From: a virus
Virus record (IMG/VR): IMGVR_UViG_3300027749_000039
Coordinates: 1 to 64,000 of that record
Length of the DNA stretch: 64,000 nt
Direction: 5' to 3' (one strand)
Numbering within the stretch: the first letter of the stretch is position 1; each line of letters begins with the position of its first letter. Under the pieces are notes generated by a model. That model made no database searches, was not told the DNA's origin, and worked only from the letters and a program-made list of their open reading frames with translations. A program made the position numbers and the translations under genes. Shown piece by piece: positions 4,604 to 58,391 of this stretch.

Positions 4604-4671
4604 AAAAGATTGAAAAATCACATCTTAATTTGAGCCATTCACTCCGAATTGGCTCAAAAAAAAAATCCTTT

Positions 4672-5502
4672 ATGTACAACACAAAAATTTACAACACACT
4701 CGTCCAAAAAATGAGAGGCTTTTTCCTGGAAAAAGGTTTCATCGAAGTTCCAACACAATCTAGAACTTCAATTCTCGCAGCTTGCGAAAATCCACACTCA
4801 GTTATGACTTTTCAATTAGACGGAGAGGTTTGGCCATTAAAACAAACAGGTCAAATGGATCTTGAAGAAGAATTGCTTAAAAATCCGGATTGGCCAGGAT
4901 GCTTTTGCTTAACTACATCTTATAGAGATGAGAAAAATCCAATACCTGGTAGGCATAACAAAATATTTCCAATGTTTGAATTTGAAGCAAAAGGAAATAT
5001 TGAGCATTTAAAACAAATGGAAAAGGAATTAGTAGTATATCTTGGATTTGACACACCAGTTGAAGTTAAATATGAAGATATGTGTGCTAAATATGACGTT
5101 TCAATTCTTGAAAATGAACAAGAAATAGAAATGTGGAATGAATTAGGACACTCTGTTTCTTTACAACAATTTCCTCTGCGCACGAGCCCCTTCTATAACA
5201 TGTATATGAACCCTGATAAAACATTTAATAAAATAGATGTAATATTATATGGTCAAGAAACAATTGGTTCGGCTCAAAGATCATGTGACCCAAAAATAAT
5301 GCGTGAATTATTCTATACAATATCAGATGGTGAATATGCTGCAAAATTATTTCAATTATTTGGCAGGGAAAGAGTTGAGAAAGAGTTAAACGAATTCTTA
5401 TCACTTGAATTCTTTGAAAGATATGGTGGAGGCATAGGAATAACGCGTCTAAGTCGAGCATACGAAATGTTAATGGCAGAAAAAATGCAAGAAATGGTAT
5501 AA
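4672..5502 (+). CDS. Asp/Asn-tRNA-synthetase-like catalytic domain lacking the anticodon-binding domain (archaeal-type asparagine synthetase/AsnRS2-like)
   Basis: Motif 1 FFLEKGFIEVPT, motif 2 TTSYRDEKNPIPGRHNKIFPMFEFE, ETIGSAQRS, motif 3 YGGGIGITRL; no N-terminal OB fold; ATG 4672 preferred over TTG 4630. Confidence 0.8.
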   Translation: MYNTKIYNTLVQKMRGFFLEKGFIEVPTQSRTSILAACENPHSVMTFQLDGEVWPLKQTGQMDLEEELLKNPDWPGCFCLTTSYRDEKNPIPGRHNKIFPMFEFEAKGNIEHLKQMEKELVVYLGFDTPVEVKYEDMCAKYDVSILENEQEIEMWNELGHSVSLQQFPLRTSPFYNMYMNPDKTFNKIDVILYGQETIGSAQRSCDPKIMRELFYTISDGEYAAKLFQLFGRERVEKELNEFLSLEFFERYGGGIGITRLSRAYEMLMAEKMQEMV

Positions 5503-5540: not shown

Positions 5541-5597
5541 TCTTTATACGCATCTAAATTATATTAAACTTTGACTAACATTAAAAATATAAAATTA

Positions 5598-7142
5598 ATG
5601 CTAATAGACACTCAATATTTAAGTCACACAAGAAAGCTAGTTTTATCGTATGTAGATAAAACTGGTAAGACAAAAATGAAATACTTTGATTGGACAAACC
5701 CAATGAAGTATCAAAACTGCGATTCAACGGATCCAGATAAACATCCACGGTTTAAATCATGGGATGGCAAACCTGTTAAGAAAATTCCGGCAGGATATCC
5801 TGATAGATATGCAATTTATGAATTTTTAGATAATCTTCCAGAAGATGAAAAGACTGAAATCTTTGAATATAACGACCCTGAAATCTATTTTATAGATATT
5901 GAAACAGCGTTAGATCCAAATACAGGCGGTTATTCTCAACCAGAAGACCCAAATGGACAAATATTGTCTATATCTTTGGTTTATGCTGATAAAATAATTC
6001 TAATGGGATTGAAAGATATGCCAGATGATATGCAAAAACGGATTATTGATGATACTAATAAATACTTTGCAAAGTTTGACAGCCATTATAAGTTTAAGTA
6101 TATTAAATATAATGATGAATTTAGTATGATTAAATCTTTCTTTGAAGATTTTGTGCCAAAAATGACTTGTTTAACTGGTTGGAACTTTGTGGGTTATGAC
6201 TGGTTATATTTAGTAAATCGTGCTAGAAAACTAACTAAAATCATAAATGGTGAGCAATTAACTATTGATCCAAATATATCTTCTCCTACAAAGAGAATGA
6301 ATAAAGTGTGGATGACTAATTATGAATTACCAGCACATAGACTTATATTTGATTATATGCAGTTATATGAAATCTGTGATACTTCAATCAAGGTTAAAGA
6401 ATCATCATCACTCGACTTCGTAGCAGGCAAATTAGTTGGTGTTAATAAAATCAAATATACCGGTAATTTACATAAATTATACGAAGATGATTTTGAATTA
6501 TTCATGTATTATAACTGCGTTGACTCTGTGTTGGTTCAAAAAATACACGAAGCTAAAAATTATATATCAATCGTATATGCGGTTTCATCACTTGCTAAAA
6601 TACAAATTAAAGATGTAGTTAATCAATCTAAAGGAGCTTTAGCGTCATTAGCAATTACAGAAGGTGTATTAAGAGACAGATTTAGAGATATGGAAGACAT
6701 CGTTTTGTTTAAAAACGAAGATAGACCTTCTTATGACGCAGAAGATACCGCTTTAGCAGGTGGTTGGGTAAAAGACCCAGTGACAGGTATGAACTTATGG
6801 GTTGTTTGTTATGACTTTGCATCTCTTTATCCAACCACGATGTTGGAGTTCTTTATAGCTCCGGAGAATTTTGTAGGAGTGCAAAATTCGGAAAATAAAT
6901 CTGTTTGCACTAATGGTATGCCAATTGATTTAACGAAACATGTTGTTTGTATAAATGGTGTGGTATTTAAAAAACACAGGTCTCCAACAATCACTATGAT
7001 AGAAGATGTTTATGCAGATAGGAAAAAAGCTAAAAAAATTATGATGCAAAAAAAAGAGGAATATCAAAGAATAATAAACGAAATAAAAGAATTAGAAGCC
7101 GAACTGAGCTCCTGCGCCTACATAAGTAAGCAAAATAATTAA
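5598..7142 (+). CDS. Family B DNA polymerase, N-terminal subunit (3'-5' exonuclease + motif A + first finger helix; gp43A-like)
   Basis: ExoI FIDIET, ExoII GWNFVGYDW, ExoIII YNCVDS, motif A YDFASLYP; ends after YADRKKAK helix with no KxxxNSxYG or DTDS. Confidence 0.9.
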   Translation: MLIDTQYLSHTRKLVLSYVDKTGKTKMKYFDWTNPMKYQNCDSTDPDKHPRFKSWDGKPVKKIPAGYPDRYAIYEFLDNLPEDEKTEIFEYNDPEIYFIDIETALDPNTGGYSQPEDPNGQILSISLVYADKIILMGLKDMPDDMQKRIIDDTNKYFAKFDSHYKFKYIKYNDEFSMIKSFFEDFVPKMTCLTGWNFVGYDWLYLVNRARKLTKIINGEQLTIDPNISSPTKRMNKVWMTNYELPAHRLIFDYMQLYEICDTSIKVKESSSLDFVAGKLVGVNKIKYTGNLHKLYEDDFELFMYYNCVDSVLVQKIHEAKNYISIVYAVSSLAKIQIKDVVNQSKGALASLAITEGVLRDRFRDMEDIVLFKNEDRPSYDAEDTALAGGWVKDPVTGMNLWVVCYDFASLYPTTMLEFFIAPENFVGVQNSENKSVCTNGMPIDLTKHVVCINGVVFKKHRSPTITMIEDVYADRKKAKKIMMQKKEEYQRIINEIKELEAELSSCAYISKQNN

Positions 7143-7152
7143 TATATAAAAT

Positions 7153-8016
7153 ATGGAAGAAAAAAGATATTATATTTATGTATTTTTAGATAATACTAAA
7201 CCGGGTAAATATGTTTATGATAACTTAAAGTTTGACTATGAACCATTTTATATAGGAAAGGGAACTGATGATAGAATTATAACATCATTTTATGATAAAC
7301 AAACTTTCAAATCAAATAAGATTAAATCAATAAAAAATAAAGGTGGTGATGTTATTAGATATAAATTATATGAAAATCTAGAAAATTTTGAAGCACTAGA
7401 ATTAGAAAAGATTCTAATTTCAAAAATCGGTAGAAGAGATTTATATAAAGGAACTTTAACCAATCTAACTCATGGTGGTGATGGAAGATTAGCATCGCCA
7501 CATACTGAAGAAACTAAAATAAAAATATCCGAAACTAAGAAATCTCAACATTTACATTCTATTATTACAGATTCGCAAAAAGAATATCTTAGAGAAATTA
7601 ATTTAGGTGAAAAAAATCCTATGTATGGTAAAACACACACTGATGAAGTAAAAGAAAAGCAGTCTTTGTTAGTTTCTGGCTCAAATCATCCTATGTATGG
7701 TAAAAAACATAATGAAGAAACTATACAAAAGATAAAAGATAAAAGAAATAACGCTGTAAATCAAGAAACTGCAAATTTAGATTCTAAATTACGAAACAAT
7801 AAAGCAATTTTGCAATATGACTTAAATAATAATTTTATAGCAGAGTTTGAATCAATTAAGTTTGCCTCTATTGAATTGAAAATATCCGAATCTTTAATTG
7901 GTAAAACTTGTAGAGGAATTGTTAAAAATCCAAGAAAATTTATTTTCAAATTTAAGGAAGAAAGTGATAAGATATTAACTAATTCTTATGAATTAAAAGA
8001 AGGTGATATAGATTAA
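7153..8016 (+). mobile_element. Free-standing GIY-YIG homing endonuclease with NUMOD3/NUMOD1-like repeats; C-terminus apparently frameshifted
   Basis: YYIYVF...FYIGKG...R, NLTHGGDG, NPMYGKTH/HPMYGKKH, ILQYDLNNNFIAEFESIK; LIKRCKMTVIVEE continues in another frame to about 8120. Confidence 0.85.
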
Positions 8017-17237: not shown

Positions 17238-17362
17238 TTTGTTTTTTGAAAAATTTTCAACATTTGAAAATTTTAACATAAAAATTACTCAATATATAAT
17301 TAACAATTTTTAAAAAATTGTTGTTATTGGAATTTTATTCTAAAAAAAAATTAAAAATTATT

Positions 17363-18817
17363 ATGACAAAACAAATTTATGTCGTTAAAAGAGACGACAG
17401 GCGAGAGCTTTTGGATTACGAAAAGATAAATAAAGTTTTACTTTGGGCAACCGAGGATATTACCAATGTATCTGCTTCTGATGTTGCTATGAATGCTAAA
17501 TTACAAATTTTTGATGGTATCGCTAGTTCGGAAATACACAAAGTTCTTATTCAATCTGCGGTTGATATGATAAGTGAAGAAACACCAAACTATCAATACG
17601 TTGCTTCTAAATTAACTAATTTCTTATTGAGAAAAGAAGTATTTAATACATACAATATTTTCCCAAGACTTAAAACTTTTATTAAAGAAAACGCTGATAG
17701 AGAAGTTTATGATAGTGTGGTATTAACAAAATATACCGAAAGAGAAATAGATAAAATTGAACAATTTATTAAACATAAGAGAGATGAAGACTTGACATAT
17801 TCAGGTATTCAACAATTGATGGATAAATACTTAGTTCAAGACAGAAAAACTGGTAAACATTATGAAACACCACAATTTATGTATATCTTAATAGCCATGA
17901 CTTTATTTGCTTCTTATGCTGGTGAAGACAGATTGGAAAAAGTTAAGAAGTGTTATGAAATGCTATCTTTGCAAAAGATATCTCTTCCAACTCCTATATT
18001 AGCTGGTGTTAGAACTCCTAACCGTCAGTTTGCATCATGTGTATTAGTTGATGTTGCGGATGATTTAGATTCAATCGCTGCTTCTAATCATGCAGTGTTG
18101 AGATATATCTCTAATAGAGCTGGTATTGGCTTAAACTTCCGTTTAAGAGCAATTGGTTCTTCTGTGAATAATGGTGAAAAGATACATACTGGTATTATAC
18201 CTTTCCTAAAAATGTTTGAATCTTCTGTTAAATCTTGTTCACAAGGTGGTATCAGAGGTGGTGCCGCAACAGCTCACTATCCTTTTTGGCATAAAGAAAT
18301 AATGGATATATTAGTATTAAAAAATAATGCTGGTAATGAATTATCTCGTGTTAGAAGAATGGATCACTCTATTCAATTATGTAGATTATTTTATACAAGA
18401 TTTGTTAAGAAGGAAAATATTAGCCTATTTTCAGCAAATGATGTTCCAGAATTATACGAAGCATTTGGTTATGATAATGATAAGTTTGAAGCTTTATATG
18501 TTAAATACGAAAATGATCCTACAATTAATAAAACAACTATTGCAGCTGGTGAAGTAATGAACTTACTTTTACAAGAAAGATTAGAAAACGGTAGAATTTA
18601 TATACAAAATATAGACAATGCAAATATACACTCGGCATTTTTAGATAAGATAAATATGTCTAATCTTTGCCAAGAAATAACATTACCATCTAGTCCTATT
18701 TATGATATAAACGATGGTAAAATTATTAAAAGAAAAATCAAAATCAAAAAAGAAGATTTTAATAATTTTAAAGAATTATTAGGTAATAATAAAGAAATAA
18801 AAATTAAAGGCGAATAA
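17363..18817 (+). CDS. nrdA: Class Ia ribonucleotide reductase alpha subunit, N-terminal piece
   Basis: ATP-cone VVKRD, TPILAG, FASCVL, QGGIRGG, catalytic SNLCQEI; stops before the second redox Cys; ATG 17363 preferred. Confidence 0.9.
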   Translation: MTKQIYVVKRDDRRELLDYEKINKVLLWATEDITNVSASDVAMNAKLQIFDGIASSEIHKVLIQSAVDMISEETPNYQYVASKLTNFLLRKEVFNTYNIFPRLKTFIKENADREVYDSVVLTKYTEREIDKIEQFIKHKRDEDLTYSGIQQLMDKYLVQDRKTGKHYETPQFMYILIAMTLFASYAGEDRLEKVKKCYEMLSLQKISLPTPILAGVRTPNRQFASCVLVDVADDLDSIAASNHAVLRYISNRAGIGLNFRLRAIGSSVNNGEKIHTGIIPFLKMFESSVKSCSQGGIRGGAATAHYPFWHKEIMDILVLKNNAGNELSRVRRMDHSIQLCRLFYTRFVKKENISLFSANDVPELYEAFGYDNDKFEALYVKYENDPTINKTTIAAGEVMNLLLQERLENGRIYIQNIDNANIHSAFLDKINMSNLCQEITLPSSPIYDINDGKIIKRKIKIKKEDFNNFKELLGNNKEIKIKGE

Positions 18818-18854: not shown

Positions 18855-19826
18855 ATGAAAAATAATTATATAGGATTTATATACAAATGGACTAACAAAA
18901 ATAATAATATGTTTTATATAGGTTCGCATAAAGGTAATATAAATGATGGGTATGTTGGTTCTGGAACTTTATTTAAAGAAGAATATAAGCTAAATAAAAT
19001 TGATTTTGAAAGGAAAATATTAGAATATGTTAATAATGAAGAAAATATTTTAGTCAGAGAACAATTTTATTTAGATTTATATGATGTAAAAAATAATAAA
19101 TTATCTTATAATTTAAACCCAAAGACTTCTGGTGGATGGAAATTTTGTCACGAATCATCTTATCTAATAAACAAAAGAAATGATTCTATAAAAGATACAT
19201 TTAAAAATGGAAGAATTATTTATAATAAAGATAAGAAAATAGAAGAATTATATTCGGAGGATGTTGTTACTCGTTTGAAACAAAAGGCTTCTGAAAATAT
19301 TGGCGATAAATTTAATAGAAATAAAGGAAATAAAGGTGCTGGTATAAAAAATTCTAACTCAAAGATAGTACTAATTGAGTATTTACATGGTAATCTTAAA
19401 TTAATATGTAAAGGAACATTTAGAAAATGGTGTCATTCTGGATCTTATAAGAAAGATAATAAATCAATATGGAAGATATACTATTTAAATAATAGTTCTG
19501 ATTTGATCTTATATAATGATTATATAGAATATAATGGCGAAAAATATACAAAAGAATACCTTATTGGTATAACAAAAAATAAATTATTATTAGAAGTTCA
19601 TAACAGAAATTATTATTTAATAGAGCATATTGAAACAAACATACAATTTAAATCTGATATTCCTTTGGGTGTAATTAGAAAAAAATTAAAAGGTGGATTT
19701 GGTAAATTAATATGGAATTTTAATGAAATTTCTTACGAAGAATTCCTAAAAAAAGAAATAAAATATTATGATGGAAAAAGTAAAATTTGTGGAAACACAA
19801 TACGAGAATATTGTTCAATTTTGTAA
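18855..19826 (+). mobile_element. GIY-YIG homing endonuclease inserted within nrdA
   Basis: GFIYKWTN...FYIGSH, YVGSG, ILVREQFYLD, YNL. Confidence 0.85.
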
Positions 19827-53058: not shown

Positions 53059-53946
53059 TTAGATTCTTGTTCCACAAGAAGGACAGAATTTTTCTGTTCC
53101 CTTTAATTTGTTTCCACAATCAGAACAAAAGTTCTTCTTTAATTCCGATGTTTCTACTGGTTTCTTGCTATTTGGAAGTAATTGATAAGAAACTTTACTG
53201 ACACAGTATGCTTCAAAATCCATTTCAATTGCTTCAAATTTTTGTTGTGATTTATCACCTTTTTCTATTCTACCAGTCTCAGTTGTATCAGAAAGTGTTT
53301 TATTCTTAGATTTAGACCTAAGAATATCTGAACTTTTTGATTGCTCCGAAGTATTAGAATAAGATCTAATAGTGTTTGATGTATTTGATATGTTTGATGT
53401 ATAAAAACAATTACTACTTCCTAATGACATATTATTAATACTTACTTGAGAAGTAGTAATTAATGGATTTGTCCCAAATGTTATATTTCCACCATTCGTA
53501 GGTATAATAGTGTTATCAACTGTCCAAGTAATATTTGGATTACTATTTAGATTAACATAAGTATAACTGTTGGCGATAAATTTTGGTGTAGTTCTTTCTT
53601 TAAAGAAAGAAACTTCTACAAATCCATTATTAGCAACGGCATTTAATGCTTCTGTTGAGTTTTCTACGTCATAGGTTTTAAATAAAAATTTCTTTTTATC
53701 ATCTAAAAAGCAATCTAAATAAAATCTTTGTCCTGGTCTTAAAATTAAACCATTTTCTGAAACTTTTTTACCATTGATTTTAATTTCAGCTAATACTGAA
53801 TCTTGAAGTGGATTAAAGAGTTCGATTATAAACTCTTGGTTATTGTCTAAATAGACTTTATTATTAAGATATATTTTTTTACGTCCTCTATCTTTTGAGT
53901 TGACGATCCATGCGGAAGGATTTCCGTTGTTTGATGTGTAATACAT
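53059..53946 (-). CDS. Conserved phage protein with C-terminal double zinc ribbon
   Basis: IELFNP...ING...GLILRPGQRFYL; FCSDCG...FCPSCG. Confidence 0.7.
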   Translation of the reverse strand: MYYTSNNGNPSAWIVNSKDRGRKKIYLNNKVYLDNNQEFIIELFNPLQDSVLAEIKINGKKVSENGLILRPGQRFYLDCFLDDKKKFLFKTYDVENSTEALNAVANNGFVEVSFFKERTTPKFIANSYTYVNLNSNPNITWTVDNTIIPTNGGNITFGTNPLITTSQVSINNMSLGSSNCFYTSNISNTSNTIRSYSNTSEQSKSSDILRSKSKNKTLSDTTETGRIEKGDKSQQKFEAIEMDFEAYCVSKVSYQLLPNSKKPVETSELKKNFCSDCGNKLKGTEKFCPSCGTRI

Positions 53947-54113: not shown

Positions 54114-54230
54114 ATGAAAAGAAACAAGATTAATAAATATCAATTAGAAAATCTAATGTTCTATATATTAGGATGTTTAATGATTGCAGCATTATTAGCT
54201 TGTATATATACAATAACTTATCAACCATGA
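54114..54230 (+). CDS. Small membrane protein (38 aa)
   Basis: MKRNKINKYQLENLMFYILGCLMIAALLACIYTITYQP; single TM segment. Confidence 0.5.
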   Translation: MKRNKINKYQLENLMFYILGCLMIAALLACIYTITYQP

Positions 54231-54406
54231 AAATATCAATTTCAGCAACAACATTAACAATAATACTAGCAATCCTTAAACTAACTGGTGTATTTGCATT
54301 ATCTTGGTTATGGGTGTTTTGTCCAATTTGGATACCAATAGCCTTATTTGCTGTATATTTATTATTAATGGTATTATTTGTTTTTATTGCAATTTTGTTT
54401 TCATAA
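54227..54406 (+). CDS. Small membrane protein
   Basis: LAILKLTGVFALSWLWVFCPIWIP motif typical of small phage membrane proteins; ATG 54227. Confidence 0.7.
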   Translation: MKISISATTLTIILAILKLTGVFALSWLWVFCPIWIPIALFAVYLLLMVLFVFIAILFS

Positions 54407-54411
54407 ATATT

Positions 54412-54484
54412 GAGGGTATAGCTCAGTTGGAAGAGCATCTGACTCTAAATCAGAGAGTCGTGGGTTCGAGCCCCACTATCCTCT
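54412..54484 (+). tRNA. Amber suppressor tRNA (anticodon CUA)
   Basis: Acceptor GAGGGTA/TATCCTC, D-stem GCTC/GAGC, anticodon arm TCTGA-CTCTAAA-TCAGA (CTA at 54445-54447), T-arm GTGGG-TTCGAGC-CCCAC, N73=U, CCA not encoded. Confidence 0.92.
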
Positions 54485-54491
54485 CTTAAAT

Positions 54492-54573
54492 GCGGTCTGA
54501 GTTTTAAATCTATCCTGGCGGAAGAGCATGGCACTAAACTATGTAACATTGGGTTCGAATCCTACAGATCGCG
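54492..54573 (+). tRNA. Atypical/degenerate tRNA-like element, probable anticodon CUA
   Basis: Acceptor GCGGTCT/AGATCGC, T-loop TTCGAAT, anticodon arm CATGG-CACTAAA-CTATG (A33 instead of U33), oversized D region. Confidence 0.55.
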
Positions 54574-54587
54574 CTAAAAATTAAAAT

Positions 54588-54812
54588 ATGATATCAATAA
54601 TATTATTAGCACTTACTATATGGTGTGGTTATAAGCTTGTTACAAGCGAGAATAAATTACTTTATTCAACATTAGTATTACTTATTGATGGCGCTTGGAT
54701 TGCATATAACTTATATACACATAGTTATATATATGCTGCATTTTGGGTAGTATTACTATTGTTTGATACAAGAACATACCAAAGATATAAAAATGAGCAA
54801 GAAGAAGATTAG
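54588..54812 (+). CDS. Small membrane protein
   Basis: 74 aa, three hydrophobic segments; ends in TAG. Confidence 0.65.
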   Translation: MISIILLALTIWCGYKLVTSENKLLYSTLVLLIDGAWIAYNLYTHSYIYAAFWVVLLLFDTRTYQRYKNEQEED

Positions 54813-55104
54813 AGAAATTTTTAGAAATGATGTCTTAAAAAGAGATAAGAATAAATGCCGCATATGTGGTGATTCTAAATCTAATCTAGATGCTCACCAT
54901 ATTACTGATAGGCATGAAATGCCTAGTGGTGGCTATGTTAAAGAAAATGGTATAACCCTCTGTGATAAAGAGGGTGGATGTCATATGAAAGCAGAACAAT
55001 ATCATATAGGTAATAAAGTTGAAGAAGGATTTATGCCAGATGATTTATATAAATTAATTAATTCAAGCTACGAAATAGCTTATTACGAATCTTTAAATCT
55101 TTAA
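54793..55104 (+). CDS. HNH endonuclease
   Basis: VLKRDKNKCRICG...LDAHHI...ENGITLC...CH; ATG 54793. Confidence 0.85.
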   Translation: MSKKKIREIFRNDVLKRDKNKCRICGDSKSNLDAHHITDRHEMPSGGYVKENGITLCDKEGGCHMKAEQYHIGNKVEEGFMPDDLYKLINSSYEIAYYESLNL

Positions 55105-55306: not shown

Positions 55307-55672
55307 ATGTTGTAGAACAAATTTAACGAAACAAAATTAGTGATAATATCTAGACAAGATATGTCATCAGGCTACCAAGTGGTCCAATCAGCACATGCTA
55401 TTGCGGATTTCGCAAGCGAACATCCCGAAACTTTTGAACAATGGAAAAAAGAATCTAATTCCATTATTTGCCTCTCAATCAAAGATGAGGAAACTTTATT
55501 AAAACTTCACGAAAAATTATCAAAGAAAACAGCAAGTTCATCATTTTATGAACCTGATGTTAATGCTTTTACGGCAATTTGTGTCTATGGCACACCTGAA
55601 ATCCGTAAAAGTCTTTCGCATTTGCCATTAGTTTTAAATAAAAAATCAAAAGATGGCGAAACGTGGTCGTGA
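55307..55672 (+). CDS. Pth2-like peptidyl-tRNA hydrolase with in-frame TAG at codon 3
   Basis: ATG TTG TAG AAC AAA TTT AAC GAA ACA AAA TTA GTG in frame with KLVIISRQD...YQVVQSAHA...SIICL...FYEPDV...TAIC...SHLPL. Confidence 0.75.
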
Positions 55673-55690
55673 TAAGTTAATATATACTTT

Positions 55691-56485
55691 ATGTATATAC
55701 GAAATTGTCCATCTTGTGGAAAAGAATTGACCTACACTACTAATTATAGTAAAAATAGGCAAGAAAAACTAAATAAATCTTGTAGAAGCTGTACTACCAA
55801 AAAGGAATATGTTATAAATCCGGATAAAAATAAAGGAGAAGAAAATGGTAGATTTGGAAAATCATTATTAGAAGTAATGAACAACAAATATGGTGAAAAA
55901 AAAGCAGAAATTAATTATAATAATTGGAAAAATAACAAAAATTCTTTTGGGATTAAAGAAAAAAATCCACAATATGGTATTTCCCCATTTAAGAATAATG
56001 GAATGTCATATAAGGGATGGTATAAAGGAATGTTTTTTAGAAGTAGTTTTGAATTGATGTTTATATTTGAAAATTATGATAAAAAAATAATTTCCGCAGA
56101 AACAAAAGAATATAGAGTTAGTTATAATTATTTAGGTAATGAAACACATTATTATCCGGATTTTTATAGCGAAACAAATAATACCATTTACGAAATAAAA
56201 TCTAAAAAATGGTTATTAGATAGTAAAAATCTTCTAAAAATAGAAGCAGGTAAGGAAGAATTTAAAAAAAGAGGAATTAAATATGAGGTATTATGTGAAT
56301 ATGATATGGATATATTTAAAAAATATAATTCTGATTGGCAGAAAATTATTTATGATTTTCTTTATGAATTAGTCATTTATAATGAAGTTAATTTAACAGA
56401 CTTGTCTTTTAAAAAATTAAAATTAAAATTGTTAAAAACAAAAAGGATTACAAAACTAAAAACAATAGAAAATACTATGAAGTAG
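55691..56485 (+). mobile_element. Putative homing endonuclease (zinc ribbon + NUMOD3-like + TnsA-like PD-(D/E)xK)
   Basis: CPSCG...CRSC, GEENGRFGK, NPQYG, FRSSFEL, HYYPDF, IYEIKS; ends at the TAG of the next gene's start. Confidence 0.7.
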
Positions 56486-57055
56486 ATAACATTATCAGCA
56501 TTAAGAGAAGCGATGGAAAGTTGCGAACAAACAAAGGGGGTCTCTACCTTACAACATGGTCTATCCGTTAAAAATTATTTATTTGATTTACTAACTCATT
56601 TAAGAAATGAAACGCCATTAAAATATGAATGGTCATTACCAAAATGGGTAATTGAGAACAAAGAATTTTTATTAGATAATTTATCTGATGATAAAACGCT
56701 ATCATTATATACCGAGTATCATGATTGTGGAAAATGGTCATGTCTTGAAGTTGATGATGACGGCAAAAGACACTTTCCAAATCATGCTGAGAAATCCTAT
56801 GATATTTTTAAACAAACATTTAAAAACCAAATAGCAGCTATATTAGTTAAACATGATATGGATATACATACTTTAAAAGCAGATGGTGTTGAAAACTTCT
56901 GTAAAAATCCATTAGCAATAACATTGTTATTAACTGGACTTGCAGAGATACACTCAAATGCTAGTATATTTGGTGGTATTGATAGCACAAGTTTTAAGAT
57001 TAAATTAAAAAGTATAACACAAAGAGGAAAACAAATTTTAAATATTCTAAAATGA
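56477..57055 (+). CDS. HD-domain hydrolase with in-frame TAG at codon 3
   Basis: ATG AAG TAG ATA ACA TTA TCA GCA TTA AGA GAA GCG ATG... in frame with CEQTKG...QHGLSV, YHDCGK, HFPNHAEKS, HDMDIH, AEIHSN; ATG 56513 is the alternative start. Confidence 0.7.
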
Positions 57056-57354
57056 TAGAAGTAATACAAGATACTACATCAAAATATGGACCATGGTTAG
57101 CCGAATTTGGAACTTATGAATTAGTAGACGACGGTATACTAACCGCAGATGAATCACAAATACTAGATGATTCTTCTGGTGAATATGAAGTATTGAAATG
57201 TAAATTGAAAAACATTGATTTCACAAAACTTCAATATGGTAGCAAATTTTTGAAAGTCAAAAGAAGTAATGGTAATATTGAAACTTGGTCATATGGTGGT
57301 CAAAGTAGAATTATTCCAGAAGAAAATTTTAGTTTTTTTACAAGACCGATATGA
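57052..57354 (+). CDS. Hypothetical protein
   Basis: 100 aa. Confidence 0.65.
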   Translation: MIEVIQDTTSKYGPWLAEFGTYELVDDGILTADESQILDDSSGEYEVLKCKLKNIDFTKLQYGSKFLKVKRSNGNIETWSYGGQSRIIPEENFSFFTRPI

Positions 57355-58391
57355 ATATAAAAGAAACATTTTTAAAACTAACTAGTAGAACTTATCCATA
57401 TGGTAATGAGCATCGTTTACGATCCTCATTGCCTAAAGATACTAAACGTGATAAACACGGTAATTTCTACTATAAAATAGGTTCATCAAGAACTATTTTT
57501 GCCTGTCATCTAGACACTGTTTCAAAAAAATATGAAGAAGTTGCTCATGTTTTTGACGGCAACATCATTAGAACAGACGGTAAAACAATACTAGGTGCTG
57601 ATGATAAAGCTGGTATGTGTGTGTTATTATATATGATTGACCAAAAAGTTCCTGGAACATATTTCTTCTTTGTGGGAGAAGAAGTTGGTTGTATTGGCAG
57701 TAAAGCAGCAGCATCAAAAGATAAGGATTTCTTTTTTGAATATGATAAGATAATATCTTTTGATAGGAAAGATACTTGTTCTATTATAACCCACCAAAGT
57801 TGGGAAAGATGCTGTTCAAATGATTTTGCAAAAGCTTTATCAAAAGAATATACCGATTTAGGTTTAGAACTAATACCTGATGATACAGGTGTTGGAACTG
57901 ATTCCGCCCAATTTACCGATATAATTCCTGAATGTACAAATATATCAGTAGGATATTATAAGGAGCATACACATGAAGAGCATCAAGATATAGATTTCTT
58001 GGAAAGACTTTGTATGGCTTCCGCTATTATTGACTGGGAAAGTTTACCGACTGCAAGAGATCCAAAAATAAAAGAATACAAAGAATATGATTATGATAAT
58101 CATTATTCAAAATGGATTAATAAGGAGCGTGAACGTGAAAAAGTATGTAAATGGAATTATGCCGATAATAGAAGAAAAGATAGAGTTGATTTAAGAAAAA
58201 CATACGGCTATAATGAAGATTTACCTATTGATGAAGAACTAAGAAGTAGATTGAATGATGCATCTTTATATGGAACTACGGATAGAAAAGATATATTTTT
58301 CGTATTCAGAGAATCTATGTTAGATAGAGGATTTTCAGCAGCAGAATATGGTATAATCGAGGAACAATATATTGATAACTATTTAGTTTAA
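57351..58391 (+). CDS. M28/M20-like zinc peptidase/amidohydrolase
   Basis: ACHLDTV, LGADDKAG, GEEVGCIGS, SFDR, SVGYYKEH. Confidence 0.8.
   Translation: MNIKETFLKLTSRTYPYGNEHRLRSSLPKDTKRDKHGNFYYKIGSSRTIFACHLDTVSKKYEEVAHVFDGNIIRTDGKTILGADDKAGMCVLLYMIDQKVPGTYFFFVGEEVGCIGSKAAASKDKDFFFEYDKIISFDRKDTCSIITHQSWERCCSNDFAKALSKEYTDLGLELIPDDTGVGTDSAQFTDIIPECTNISVGYYKEHTHEEHQDIDFLERLCMASAIIDWESLPTARDPKIKEYKEYDYDNHYSKWINKEREREKVCKWNYADNRRKDRVDLRKTYGYNEDLPIDEELRSRLNDASLYGTTDRKDIFFVFRESMLDRGFSAAEYGIIEEQYIDNYLV

Follow-up and report, generated by a model that had tools for sequence, protein, structure and literature searches.

A predicted amber suppressor tRNA and its tandem CUA partner in a variable island of a standard-code megaphage lineage

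The tRNA and its tandem partner

The first 64,000 nucleotides of IMG/VR virus record IMGVR_UViG_3300027749_000039, referred to here as the window, carry two neighbouring elements with the anticodon CUA. The first, tRNA A (54412–54484, + strand), is, as judged from its sequence, a genuine UAG-reading (amber suppressor) transfer RNA (tRNA), and the second, element B (54492–54573, + strand), is a non-canonical tRNA-like RNA that starts 7 bases downstream of it. The record itself is 190,602 bp long and, at ~31% completeness (CheckV), points to a genome of ~600 kb; with a guanine-plus-cytosine (GC) content of 25–29% it belongs to a low-GC megaphage. ARAGORN finds a single tRNA in the window (54412–54485, + strand, anticodon CTA) and 46 in the record, all of which, except the suppressor, lie in arrays at 129–173 kb.

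tRNA A is 73 nt long and forms a class I cloverleaf with stems of 7, 4, 5 and 5 bp, which is also its minimum-energy fold (-27.7 kcal/mol, RNAfold). Its match to RF00005 covers the full model (1–71) at 69.1 bits (E 5e-13), well above the gathering threshold of 29, and is the best of 45 such matches in the whole record. The acceptor stem, GAGGGUA/UAUCCUC, consists of G1-C72, A2-U71, G3-C70, G4-C69, a G5.U68 wobble, U6-A67 and A7-U66, and is followed by the discriminator base U73, with CCA absent from the DNA. The D arm (GCUC/AGUUGGAA/GAGC) has an 8-nt loop containing G18 and G19, and the anticodon stem (UCUGA/UCAGA), which includes A31-U39, closes the 7-nt loop CUCUAAA, so that CUA lies between U33 and the purine A37, the arrangement of an amber suppressor. 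The variable loop is 5 nt and the T arm reads GUGGG/UUCGAGC/CCCAC. All of the usual invariant bases are present (U8, A14, G18G19, U33 and G53-T54-psi55-C56). A preliminary description of this locus had reported the canonical cloverleaf, the CUCUAAA loop, G1-C72, A2-U71 and U73, and direct reading bears out every one of these details; the G5.U68 wobble and the second CUA element 7 nt downstream had not been part of it. An exact search of IMG/VR with the anticodon arm gave a single match, by chance and inside a coding region, and blastn of tRNA A against phages returned generic tRNA similarity only, headed by tRNA-Gly of Pseudomonas phages and carrying little isotype information.

Element B is identified by its consensus fold and by conservation of the tandem. 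In the family fold the acceptor stem has 8 bp, the single-stranded linker 9 nt and the D stem 6 bp, with 4 nt in the D loop; the anticodon loop has the form C(A/G)CUAAA, the T loop is ordinary and the discriminator is G73. Compensatory changes are seen at seven of the 23 pairs. The copy in the window has the anticodon loop CACUAAA (A33), the T loop GGUUCGAAUCC and G73. It is missed by both ARAGORN and RF00005, is still missed by ARAGORN with relaxed thresholds, which gave noise only, and has a weak match, of 16 bits, to tRNA-Sec.

The nearest complete genomes, identified by tblastn, are LR756502.1 (W01, 642 kb) and LR745206.1 (W02, 634 kb), two “uncultured phage” huge-phage assemblies, which were compared whole and share gene order with the record at 50–70% protein identity. 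Closer relatives, at 65–70% identity, were reached through a family search with a neighbouring M28-like protein, and a metagenome pattern scan added more; within this set L265, L268 and L269 are one contig, and L263 and L264 one lineage. A megablast of 10 kb against phages gave no match, and single-protein searches of IMG/VR with two neighbour genes gave no close relatives. Kinship to published huge phages leads us to suspect a host among the Bacteroidota.

The A/B tandem stands at the same spot in three more metagenomic lineages (L260, L263/L264 and L265), following a 59-aa membrane open reading frame (ORF) and preceding an HNH-like ORF, an HD gene and an M28-like gene, with a PTH2-like gene additionally present at the L268/L269 locus. 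What is new here is this tandem cassette, recurring at the same spot in three related lineages. The pair was not found in W01, W02, L256, L262, L267 or L271; in W01 and W02, no CUA tRNA was detected by ARAGORN, by Infernal with RF00005 or by nhmmer with profiles of the A and B families, and nhmmer found no copy of element B. Scans of IMG/VR with A-specific and B-specific patterns returned nothing.

The orthologs of tRNA A lie at 7944–8017 in L260, 2043–2116(-) in L263 and 3848–3921 in L265. Across the four lineages the family A acceptor stem is identical bar one compensatory change at 6-67, with G5.U68 and U73 invariant in all orthologs; five pairs show compensatory change, and the anticodon stem covaries. 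The canonical 7-nt loop is found in the window copy only, whereas in the other three orthologs the loop, GCCCUAAC, is 8 nt long, position 33 is C and the 31-39 pair is C31-G39. Closed by its covarying stem, this longer loop could present CUA with C33, or alternatively could offer the four-base anticodon CCUA, pairing with UAGG. Across both families, window copies and orthologs alike, the constant part of the loop is N-C-U-A-A alone, and position 33 differs among the four forms (U, C, A or G).

That two differently built RNAs keep CUA in four lineages, on stems that covary, points to selection on UAG pairing. It also bears on the view that tRNA A is no decoder, and is instead either a recent passenger in a mobile island beside an HNH gene, or an RNA of tRNA shape with a different function, for example to decoy a nuclease of the host. 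Such a role would fit the loops of the orthologs and of element B, which lack U33 or have 8 nt and so are poor for decoding, the absence of the surrounding 3.4-kb island from both complete relatives, and the failure to find an internal TAG codon in the 190 kb. Set against the perfect canonical cloverleaf, the top tRNA score in the record and the retention of C-U-A-A described above, we consider it very unlikely.

CUA tRNAs with G1-C72, A2-U71 and U73 also occur in unrelated IMG/VR phages (L036b, L038b, L042 and L043b), often in tandem with a G73 CUA tRNA, a recurrence that suggests that the A-type acceptor pattern is not unique to this lineage. Tandem CUA tRNA pairs were observed in unrelated IMG/VR phages at L036 10427–10664(-), L038 2819–3056, L043 1929–2082 and L044 12747–12903(-), with one member bearing G73 and the other G1-C72/A2-U71 with U73 or A73; the phages carrying them include a complete 578-kb genome. 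Near the CUA tRNAs of other phages there was no signal of recoding, and alignments accordingly gave no indication of the amino acid. Three complete megaphages with similar CUA tRNAs (G001–G003) are unrelated and carry enzymes of GluRS rather than GlnRS type, and were set aside as a guide to the amino acid.

The variable island

The genes flanking tRNA A, at 53059–53946(-) and 57351–58391(+), are adjacent in W02, which places tRNA A in a variable island of 3.4 kb. Immediately upstream lies the small hydrophobic ORF of 59 aa (54227–54406, +), whose TAA stop is 5 nt before tRNA A and which has a homologous ORF upstream of the tRNA A ortholog in L260, L264 and L265. Downstream of the cassette, the HNH endonuclease-like ORF (54763–55104, +) matches PF01844 at E 5.8e-4, just below the Pfam cut-off, and has a homolog at an unrelated place in W02 (465.7 kb). 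The island also holds a PTH2-like gene (55307–55672, +; PF01981), a TnsA-like ORF and an HD-type gene (56477–57055, +), the HD call being based on a weak PF01966 record for homologs.

Elsewhere in the window, a family B DNA polymerase (5571–7142 with 7153–8016) and the large subunit of ribonucleotide reductase (17318–18817 with 18855–19826) each match a partial Pfam profile per ORF, which gives both genes a split appearance; introns or the insertion of endonuclease genes may be the cause. The tRNA arrays outside the window include molecules with long variable arms atypical of their isotype, namely Gln(UUG) of 87 nt (172625–172711) and Asp(GUC) of 90 nt (171262–171351), as well as a four-base anticodon call, ctga, at record position 133744; the arrays of W01 and W02 likewise contain Lys and Asn tRNAs of 84–89 nt with long variable arms atypical of the isotype.

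Genetic code and candidate UAG targets

Under translation table 11 the coding density of the record is ~0.9, and treating TAG as a sense codon adds almost nothing. Stop codons number 184 TAA, 28 TGA and 12 TAG (12 of 224 genes). A search over the record for in-frame TAG found no convincing internal TAG: just two spots have apparent coding sequence flanking a TAG, and both were rejected as neighbouring genes that start from separate ATG codons. The 190 kb yielded no release factor gene. W01 and W02 use the standard code over their full length (634–642 kb), structural regions included, and code 15 recoding is accordingly seen neither in the available 190 kb nor in the complete relatives. The share of TAG among stops (5.4% in the record, 8.3% in W02 and 17.3% in W01) follows GC content; depletion of TAG stops and tandem stops after TAG were therefore discarded as signs of recoding, the differences tracking GC and the sample being 12 genes.

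These data are pertinent to an alternative in which tRNA A is an ordinary suppressor of the code 15 type, charged with glutamine by phage or host GlnRS, and used for TAG-recoded late genes (structural, lysis) in the missing ~70% of the genome. For phages whose hosts use the standard code, no TAG reassignment other than to Gln has been reported, and the suppressor genes of recoded phages sit in standard-code regions (10.1101/2021.08.26.457843; PMC9523058). As none of ten large proteins from outside the window was recognisable as a structural protein when tested against PHROGs, the late genes may indeed lie in the missing part, and TAG is the rarest stop in the record. However, both complete relatives are standard-code throughout and lack the suppressor, and the scarcity of TAG tracks GC content. 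The glutamine side of this alternative is taken up below.

Two genes of the island, 0.8–2 kb downstream of tRNA A, are possible UAG targets. The PTH2-like gene opens ATG-TTG-TAG-A, and in front of the HD-type gene stand ATG-AAG-TAG-A and nine codons that are conserved; both leaders, at 55307–55315 and 56477–56485 in the window, are in frame with the domains that follow. A leader made up of ATG, one or two further codons and TAG-A precedes one or both of these genes in all seven relatives (W01, W02, L256, L260, L262, L267 and L268), with such leaders located at 338155 and 339164 in W02 and at 212125(-) in W01. The PTH2 leader, ATG-N(1–2 codons)-TAG, is kept in W01, W02, L262, L267 and L268, and the HD leader, M-x-TAG-I-T-L-x-x-x-x-x-A-M, is found with synonymous changes in W02, L256, L260, L262, L267 and L268. 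The nine codons after the HD TAG are conserved at the protein level (for example, Leu as TTA vs CTC), and the PF01981 match spans profile positions 2–78 only when the frame is taken from 55307 through the TAG, compared with 12–78 from the GTG start; together these indicate that the stretch after TAG is translated. The codon after TAG is ATT or ATA in the phages without the cassette, and such a codon is missing in the PTH2-like gene of the window. Read-through in the window phage, and non-canonical restart elsewhere, may account for this pattern. A mini-ORF of 2–3 codons before a peptidyl-tRNA-hydrolase-like gene recalls the “bar” minigenes of phage lambda.

Beyond the window, two further ATG-NNN-TAG starts were noted, one at record position 134768 with an open frame of 84 codons behind it and one at 148370 with an open frame of 99 codons. 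Over the record, the arrangement of ATG-NNN-TAG plus ORF occurs five times, compared with two for TAA and one for TGA, even though TAA trinucleotides are 2.6 times commoner; no such excess is present in W01 or W02.

Amino acid identity

The CUCUAAA loop of tRNA A had been likened in the preliminary description to that of tRNA-Pyl (pyrrolysine), and ARAGORN also returns the label tRNA-Pyl, drawn from the anticodon alone. The loop and the reading of UAG are indeed common to both, although they are uninformative as to identity, since all Pyl-specific architecture differs. In tRNA-Pyl (pylT; PMC1851642) the anticodon stem is 6 bp and the variable loop 3 nt long, the D loop is short and lacks G18G19, the T loop is unusual and the discriminator is G73; the 5-bp anticodon stem, 5-nt variable loop, 8-nt D loop and U73 of tRNA A led to its rejection as a tRNA-Pyl. 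In addition, the sole match in a search for PylRS (NF007083) lies within the AspRS gene and scores 16 bits, an absence that holds for these 190 kb (31% of the genome).

For the remaining candidates, acceptor ends were tabulated for all tRNAs of the record phage, W01 and W02. Among the ten tRNA-Gln of the clade, the 1-72 pair is weak in every case (U1-A72 in eight) and A73 occurs in 8/10. tRNA A, with a strong G1-C72, A2-U71 and U73, fits neither this pattern nor the E. coli rules, as G73, G2-C71 and U38 are all absent, in keeping with the earlier claim that it is without the usual tRNA-Gln elements. This lack of every clade or E. coli tRNA-Gln acceptor feature tells against the code 15 type of suppressor, as does A31-U39, a pair favoured by LysRS (PMC1483225). 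The true GlnRS of the record (172882–174471; TIGR00440, 613 bits), which had not been weighed in the earlier description, is in its favour, and the E. coli GlnRS readily mischarges CUA tRNAs (PMC9976931); yet this gene is directly 3' of three ordinary tRNA-Gln genes, 118 kb from the suppressor, and the same GlnRS is present in W01 and W02, both of which lack the suppressor. Overall, we judge an ordinary Gln-inserting suppressor for unseen late genes to be unlikely, and it is plausible that the inserted residue is not Gln.

The proposal of a Lys-like body holds for the 5' half, A31-U39 and G1-C72/A2-U71. A scan of 185,579 species genomes for the 5' half of tRNA A (GAGGG..TAGCTCAGTTGG.AGAGC) yielded at least 120 loci, of which 114 could be typed; among the matches listed, 88 of the 114 typed cellular tRNAs are tRNA-Lys(UUU) and 21 are tRNA-His (the first G being G-1), a sample biased by a pattern that fixes the acceptor and D arm. 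The tRNA-Lys(CUU) of the record phage and that of W02 have the same G1-C72/A2-U71 as tRNA A, and the loop of the former, CUCUUAA, is one base from CUCUAAA. In E. coli, amber suppressors with U35, a base also found in tRNA A, tend to be lysylated, and LysRS readily tolerates C34 (PMC1483225, PMC9976931); A31-U39 favours LysRS, and C31-G39 cuts Lys acceptance ~100-fold, with faint Gln acceptance (PMC1483225). Of the tRNAs in the relatives, the one most similar to tRNA A is a tRNA-Asn(GUU) of bacterial type, at 86% over positions 8–65 with another acceptor stem.

No clade isotype pairs A2-U71 with U73, and it was thus fair to state that tRNA A has no obvious identity set. Lysine is the most probable single residue, at somewhat below an even chance; glutamine comes next and is somewhat less probable, with about the same weight left for some other amino acid.

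Candidate charging enzymes

Outside the window the record encodes three synthetases, namely the GlnRS, an AspRS of non-discriminating type and an AsnRS. Within the window there are two candidates for a charging enzyme. The first is a stand-alone class IIb aminoacyl-tRNA synthetase (aaRS) catalytic core of Asp/Asn/Lys type (4630–5502, +; PF00152, 36.9 bits), of ~276 aa, which keeps the catalytic motifs, has no anticodon-binding domain and gives weak AspRS matches in the PDB. It belongs to a family of >7,700 homologs at ~70% identity, many of them on contigs of 0.2–0.6 Mb, and has no homolog in W01 or W02. The second (1–315, +) is the C-terminal part of a minimal class II aaRS-like core of ~180 aa, cut by the start of the record. 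A family search with this fragment gave no match; its full-length homologs in W01 and W02 have borderline matches to PF01409 and PF00152.

The suggestion that charging may need a phage enzyme finds no backing here, as no link between either core and tRNA A was found. Co-occurrence of the class II cores with the A/B pair was not found: one relative has an 82%-identical class IIb core, yet no A/B pair at the syntenic locus, and the core at 1–315 is conserved in W01 and W02, both without any CUA tRNA.

Interpretation

We hold, at about even confidence, that tRNA A is a UAG-decoding tRNA and the canonical member of a two-RNA cassette, with a Lys-type body, charged via its anticodon stem-loop and acting on few UAG targets. 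Its expression, charging, inserted residue and targets we infer as follows. tRNA A would be a working phage amber suppressor in a variable island of a standard-code megaphage lineage; with the tRNA-like element B it forms a conserved cassette in which both RNAs present N-C-U-A-A in the anticodon loop. Its body is of bacterial Lys/Asn type. Charging would occur mainly through the anticodon stem-loop (C34, U35, A37 and A31-U39), by a class IIb-type LysRS or by host or phage GlnRS, so that lysine, or failing that glutamine, may be inserted. The putative targets are the leaders with AUG-NNN-UAG-A that open the PTH2-like and HD genes; others may lie among the genes of the unsequenced ~70% of the genome.

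Several observations weigh against this reading. With regard to lysine, A73 contributes to Lys identity in E. coli (PMC9976931) and is present in 10/10 Lys tRNAs of the three phages, whereas tRNA A has U73 and has also lost U36; the C31-G39 and 8-nt loop of the orthologs mean that the Lys-favouring features are not conserved; and the family A profile matches Lys(UUU) no more clearly than Gly(GCC) or Asn(GUU), the three being roughly level. The phage has its own GlnRS, and in every recoded phage described to date TAG is read as Gln (10.1101/2021.08.26.457843). The UAG leaders are equally conserved in relatives without the cassette (W01, W02, L256, L262 and L267), and the leader sites therefore do not depend on tRNA A. 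Finally, conservation of the acceptor end is unexplained by purely anticodon-driven charging, and the retention of U73 and G5.U68 in all orthologs leaves room for an enzyme that reads this end of the molecule.

An orthogonal pair of this kind, in which the acceptor end (G1-C72, A2-U71, G5.U68 and U73) is read by an anticodon-blind enzyme and the residue is neither Gln nor Lys, would account for an acceptor stem and discriminator kept in four lineages while the anticodon arm was remodelled. The enzyme could be one of the phage class II cores, two of which lie in the window without anticodon domains, or a U73-reading GlyRS or CysRS. In the clade, U73 is carried by all eight Thr tRNAs, by seven of eight Gly and by both Cys tRNAs, as well as by 2/7 of Asn, and U73 alone gives minihelices Cys identity (PMC9976931); CUA tRNAs of the same acceptor type recur, moreover, in unrelated IMG/VR phages. 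The second base pair of these U73 sets is nevertheless not that of tRNA A, C2-G71 being expected for Gly and Thr, and G2-C71/C3-G70 for Cys, and no co-occurrence of the cores with the tRNA was found. We regard such a pair as quite unlikely. Similarly improbable, in our estimation, is a self-contained UAG device, made up of two co-transcribed CUA RNAs (the canonical tRNA, with an acceptor identity of its own, and the non-canonical RNA with G73) and a dedicated anticodon-independent enzyme, that would insert a possibly non-Gln residue and switch on genes such as the PTH2-like and HD genes in a virus otherwise of standard code.

By its sequence, tRNA A is a natural amber suppressor that is clearly not Gln-like, with a short list of candidate phage enzymes (the GlnRS and the two class II cores). 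Should the residue prove to be lysine or another amino acid, phage stop-codon read-through would not be limited to Gln, and tRNA A would be a naturally occurring scaffold for orthogonal tRNAs. Straightforward charging by LysRS or GlnRS would instead make tRNA A an ordinary suppressor in a standard-code relative of recoded phages.

Comparison with known systems

Among the huge phages of Al-Shayeb et al. 2020 (PMC7162821), LR756502 and LR745206 are of the same lineage as the record phage, as shown by 50–70% protein identity and synteny, and like it have large tRNA arrays beside GlnRS, AsnRS and AspRS genes. They differ in that neither LR756502 nor LR745206 holds a CUA tRNA or a B element.

The closest parallels in terms of a lysine identity are the Lys-inserting amber suppressors of E. 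coli, both those derived from tRNA-Lys and the synthetic “class III” CUA tRNAs (PMC9976931, PMC1483225). These share with tRNA A the CUA anticodon, A37 and A31-U39, as well as the class I form, the 5-nt variable loop and tRNA-Lys-like D and T arms. tRNA A is unlike them in having U73 instead of A73 and a G5.U68 wobble, and in being natural and phage-borne.

TAG suppressor tRNAs are known from recoded phages, including crAss-like, Lak and Agate phages (Borges et al., 10.1101/2021.08.26.457843; Peters et al., PMC9523058). The main survey leaves their charging mechanism unresolved and saw TAG converted to Gln alone, and it takes the TGA suppressors that it found in relatives of TGA-recoded phages that still use the standard code to represent a stage preceding recoding (10.1101/2021.08.26.457843). 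tRNA A resembles the suppressors of recoded phages in being phage-borne, in its CUA anticodon, and in its location within a standard-code region of a low-GC genome where TAG stops are rare. Unlike in recoded phages, the standard code holds for the 190 kb at hand as well as for both complete relatives, and no release factor gene accompanies the suppressor in the 190 kb. tRNA A is further set apart from those suppressors by its Lys-like body, its conserved U73 and G5.U68, its orthologs with 8-nt loops, and the non-canonical CUA partner that stands in tandem with it.
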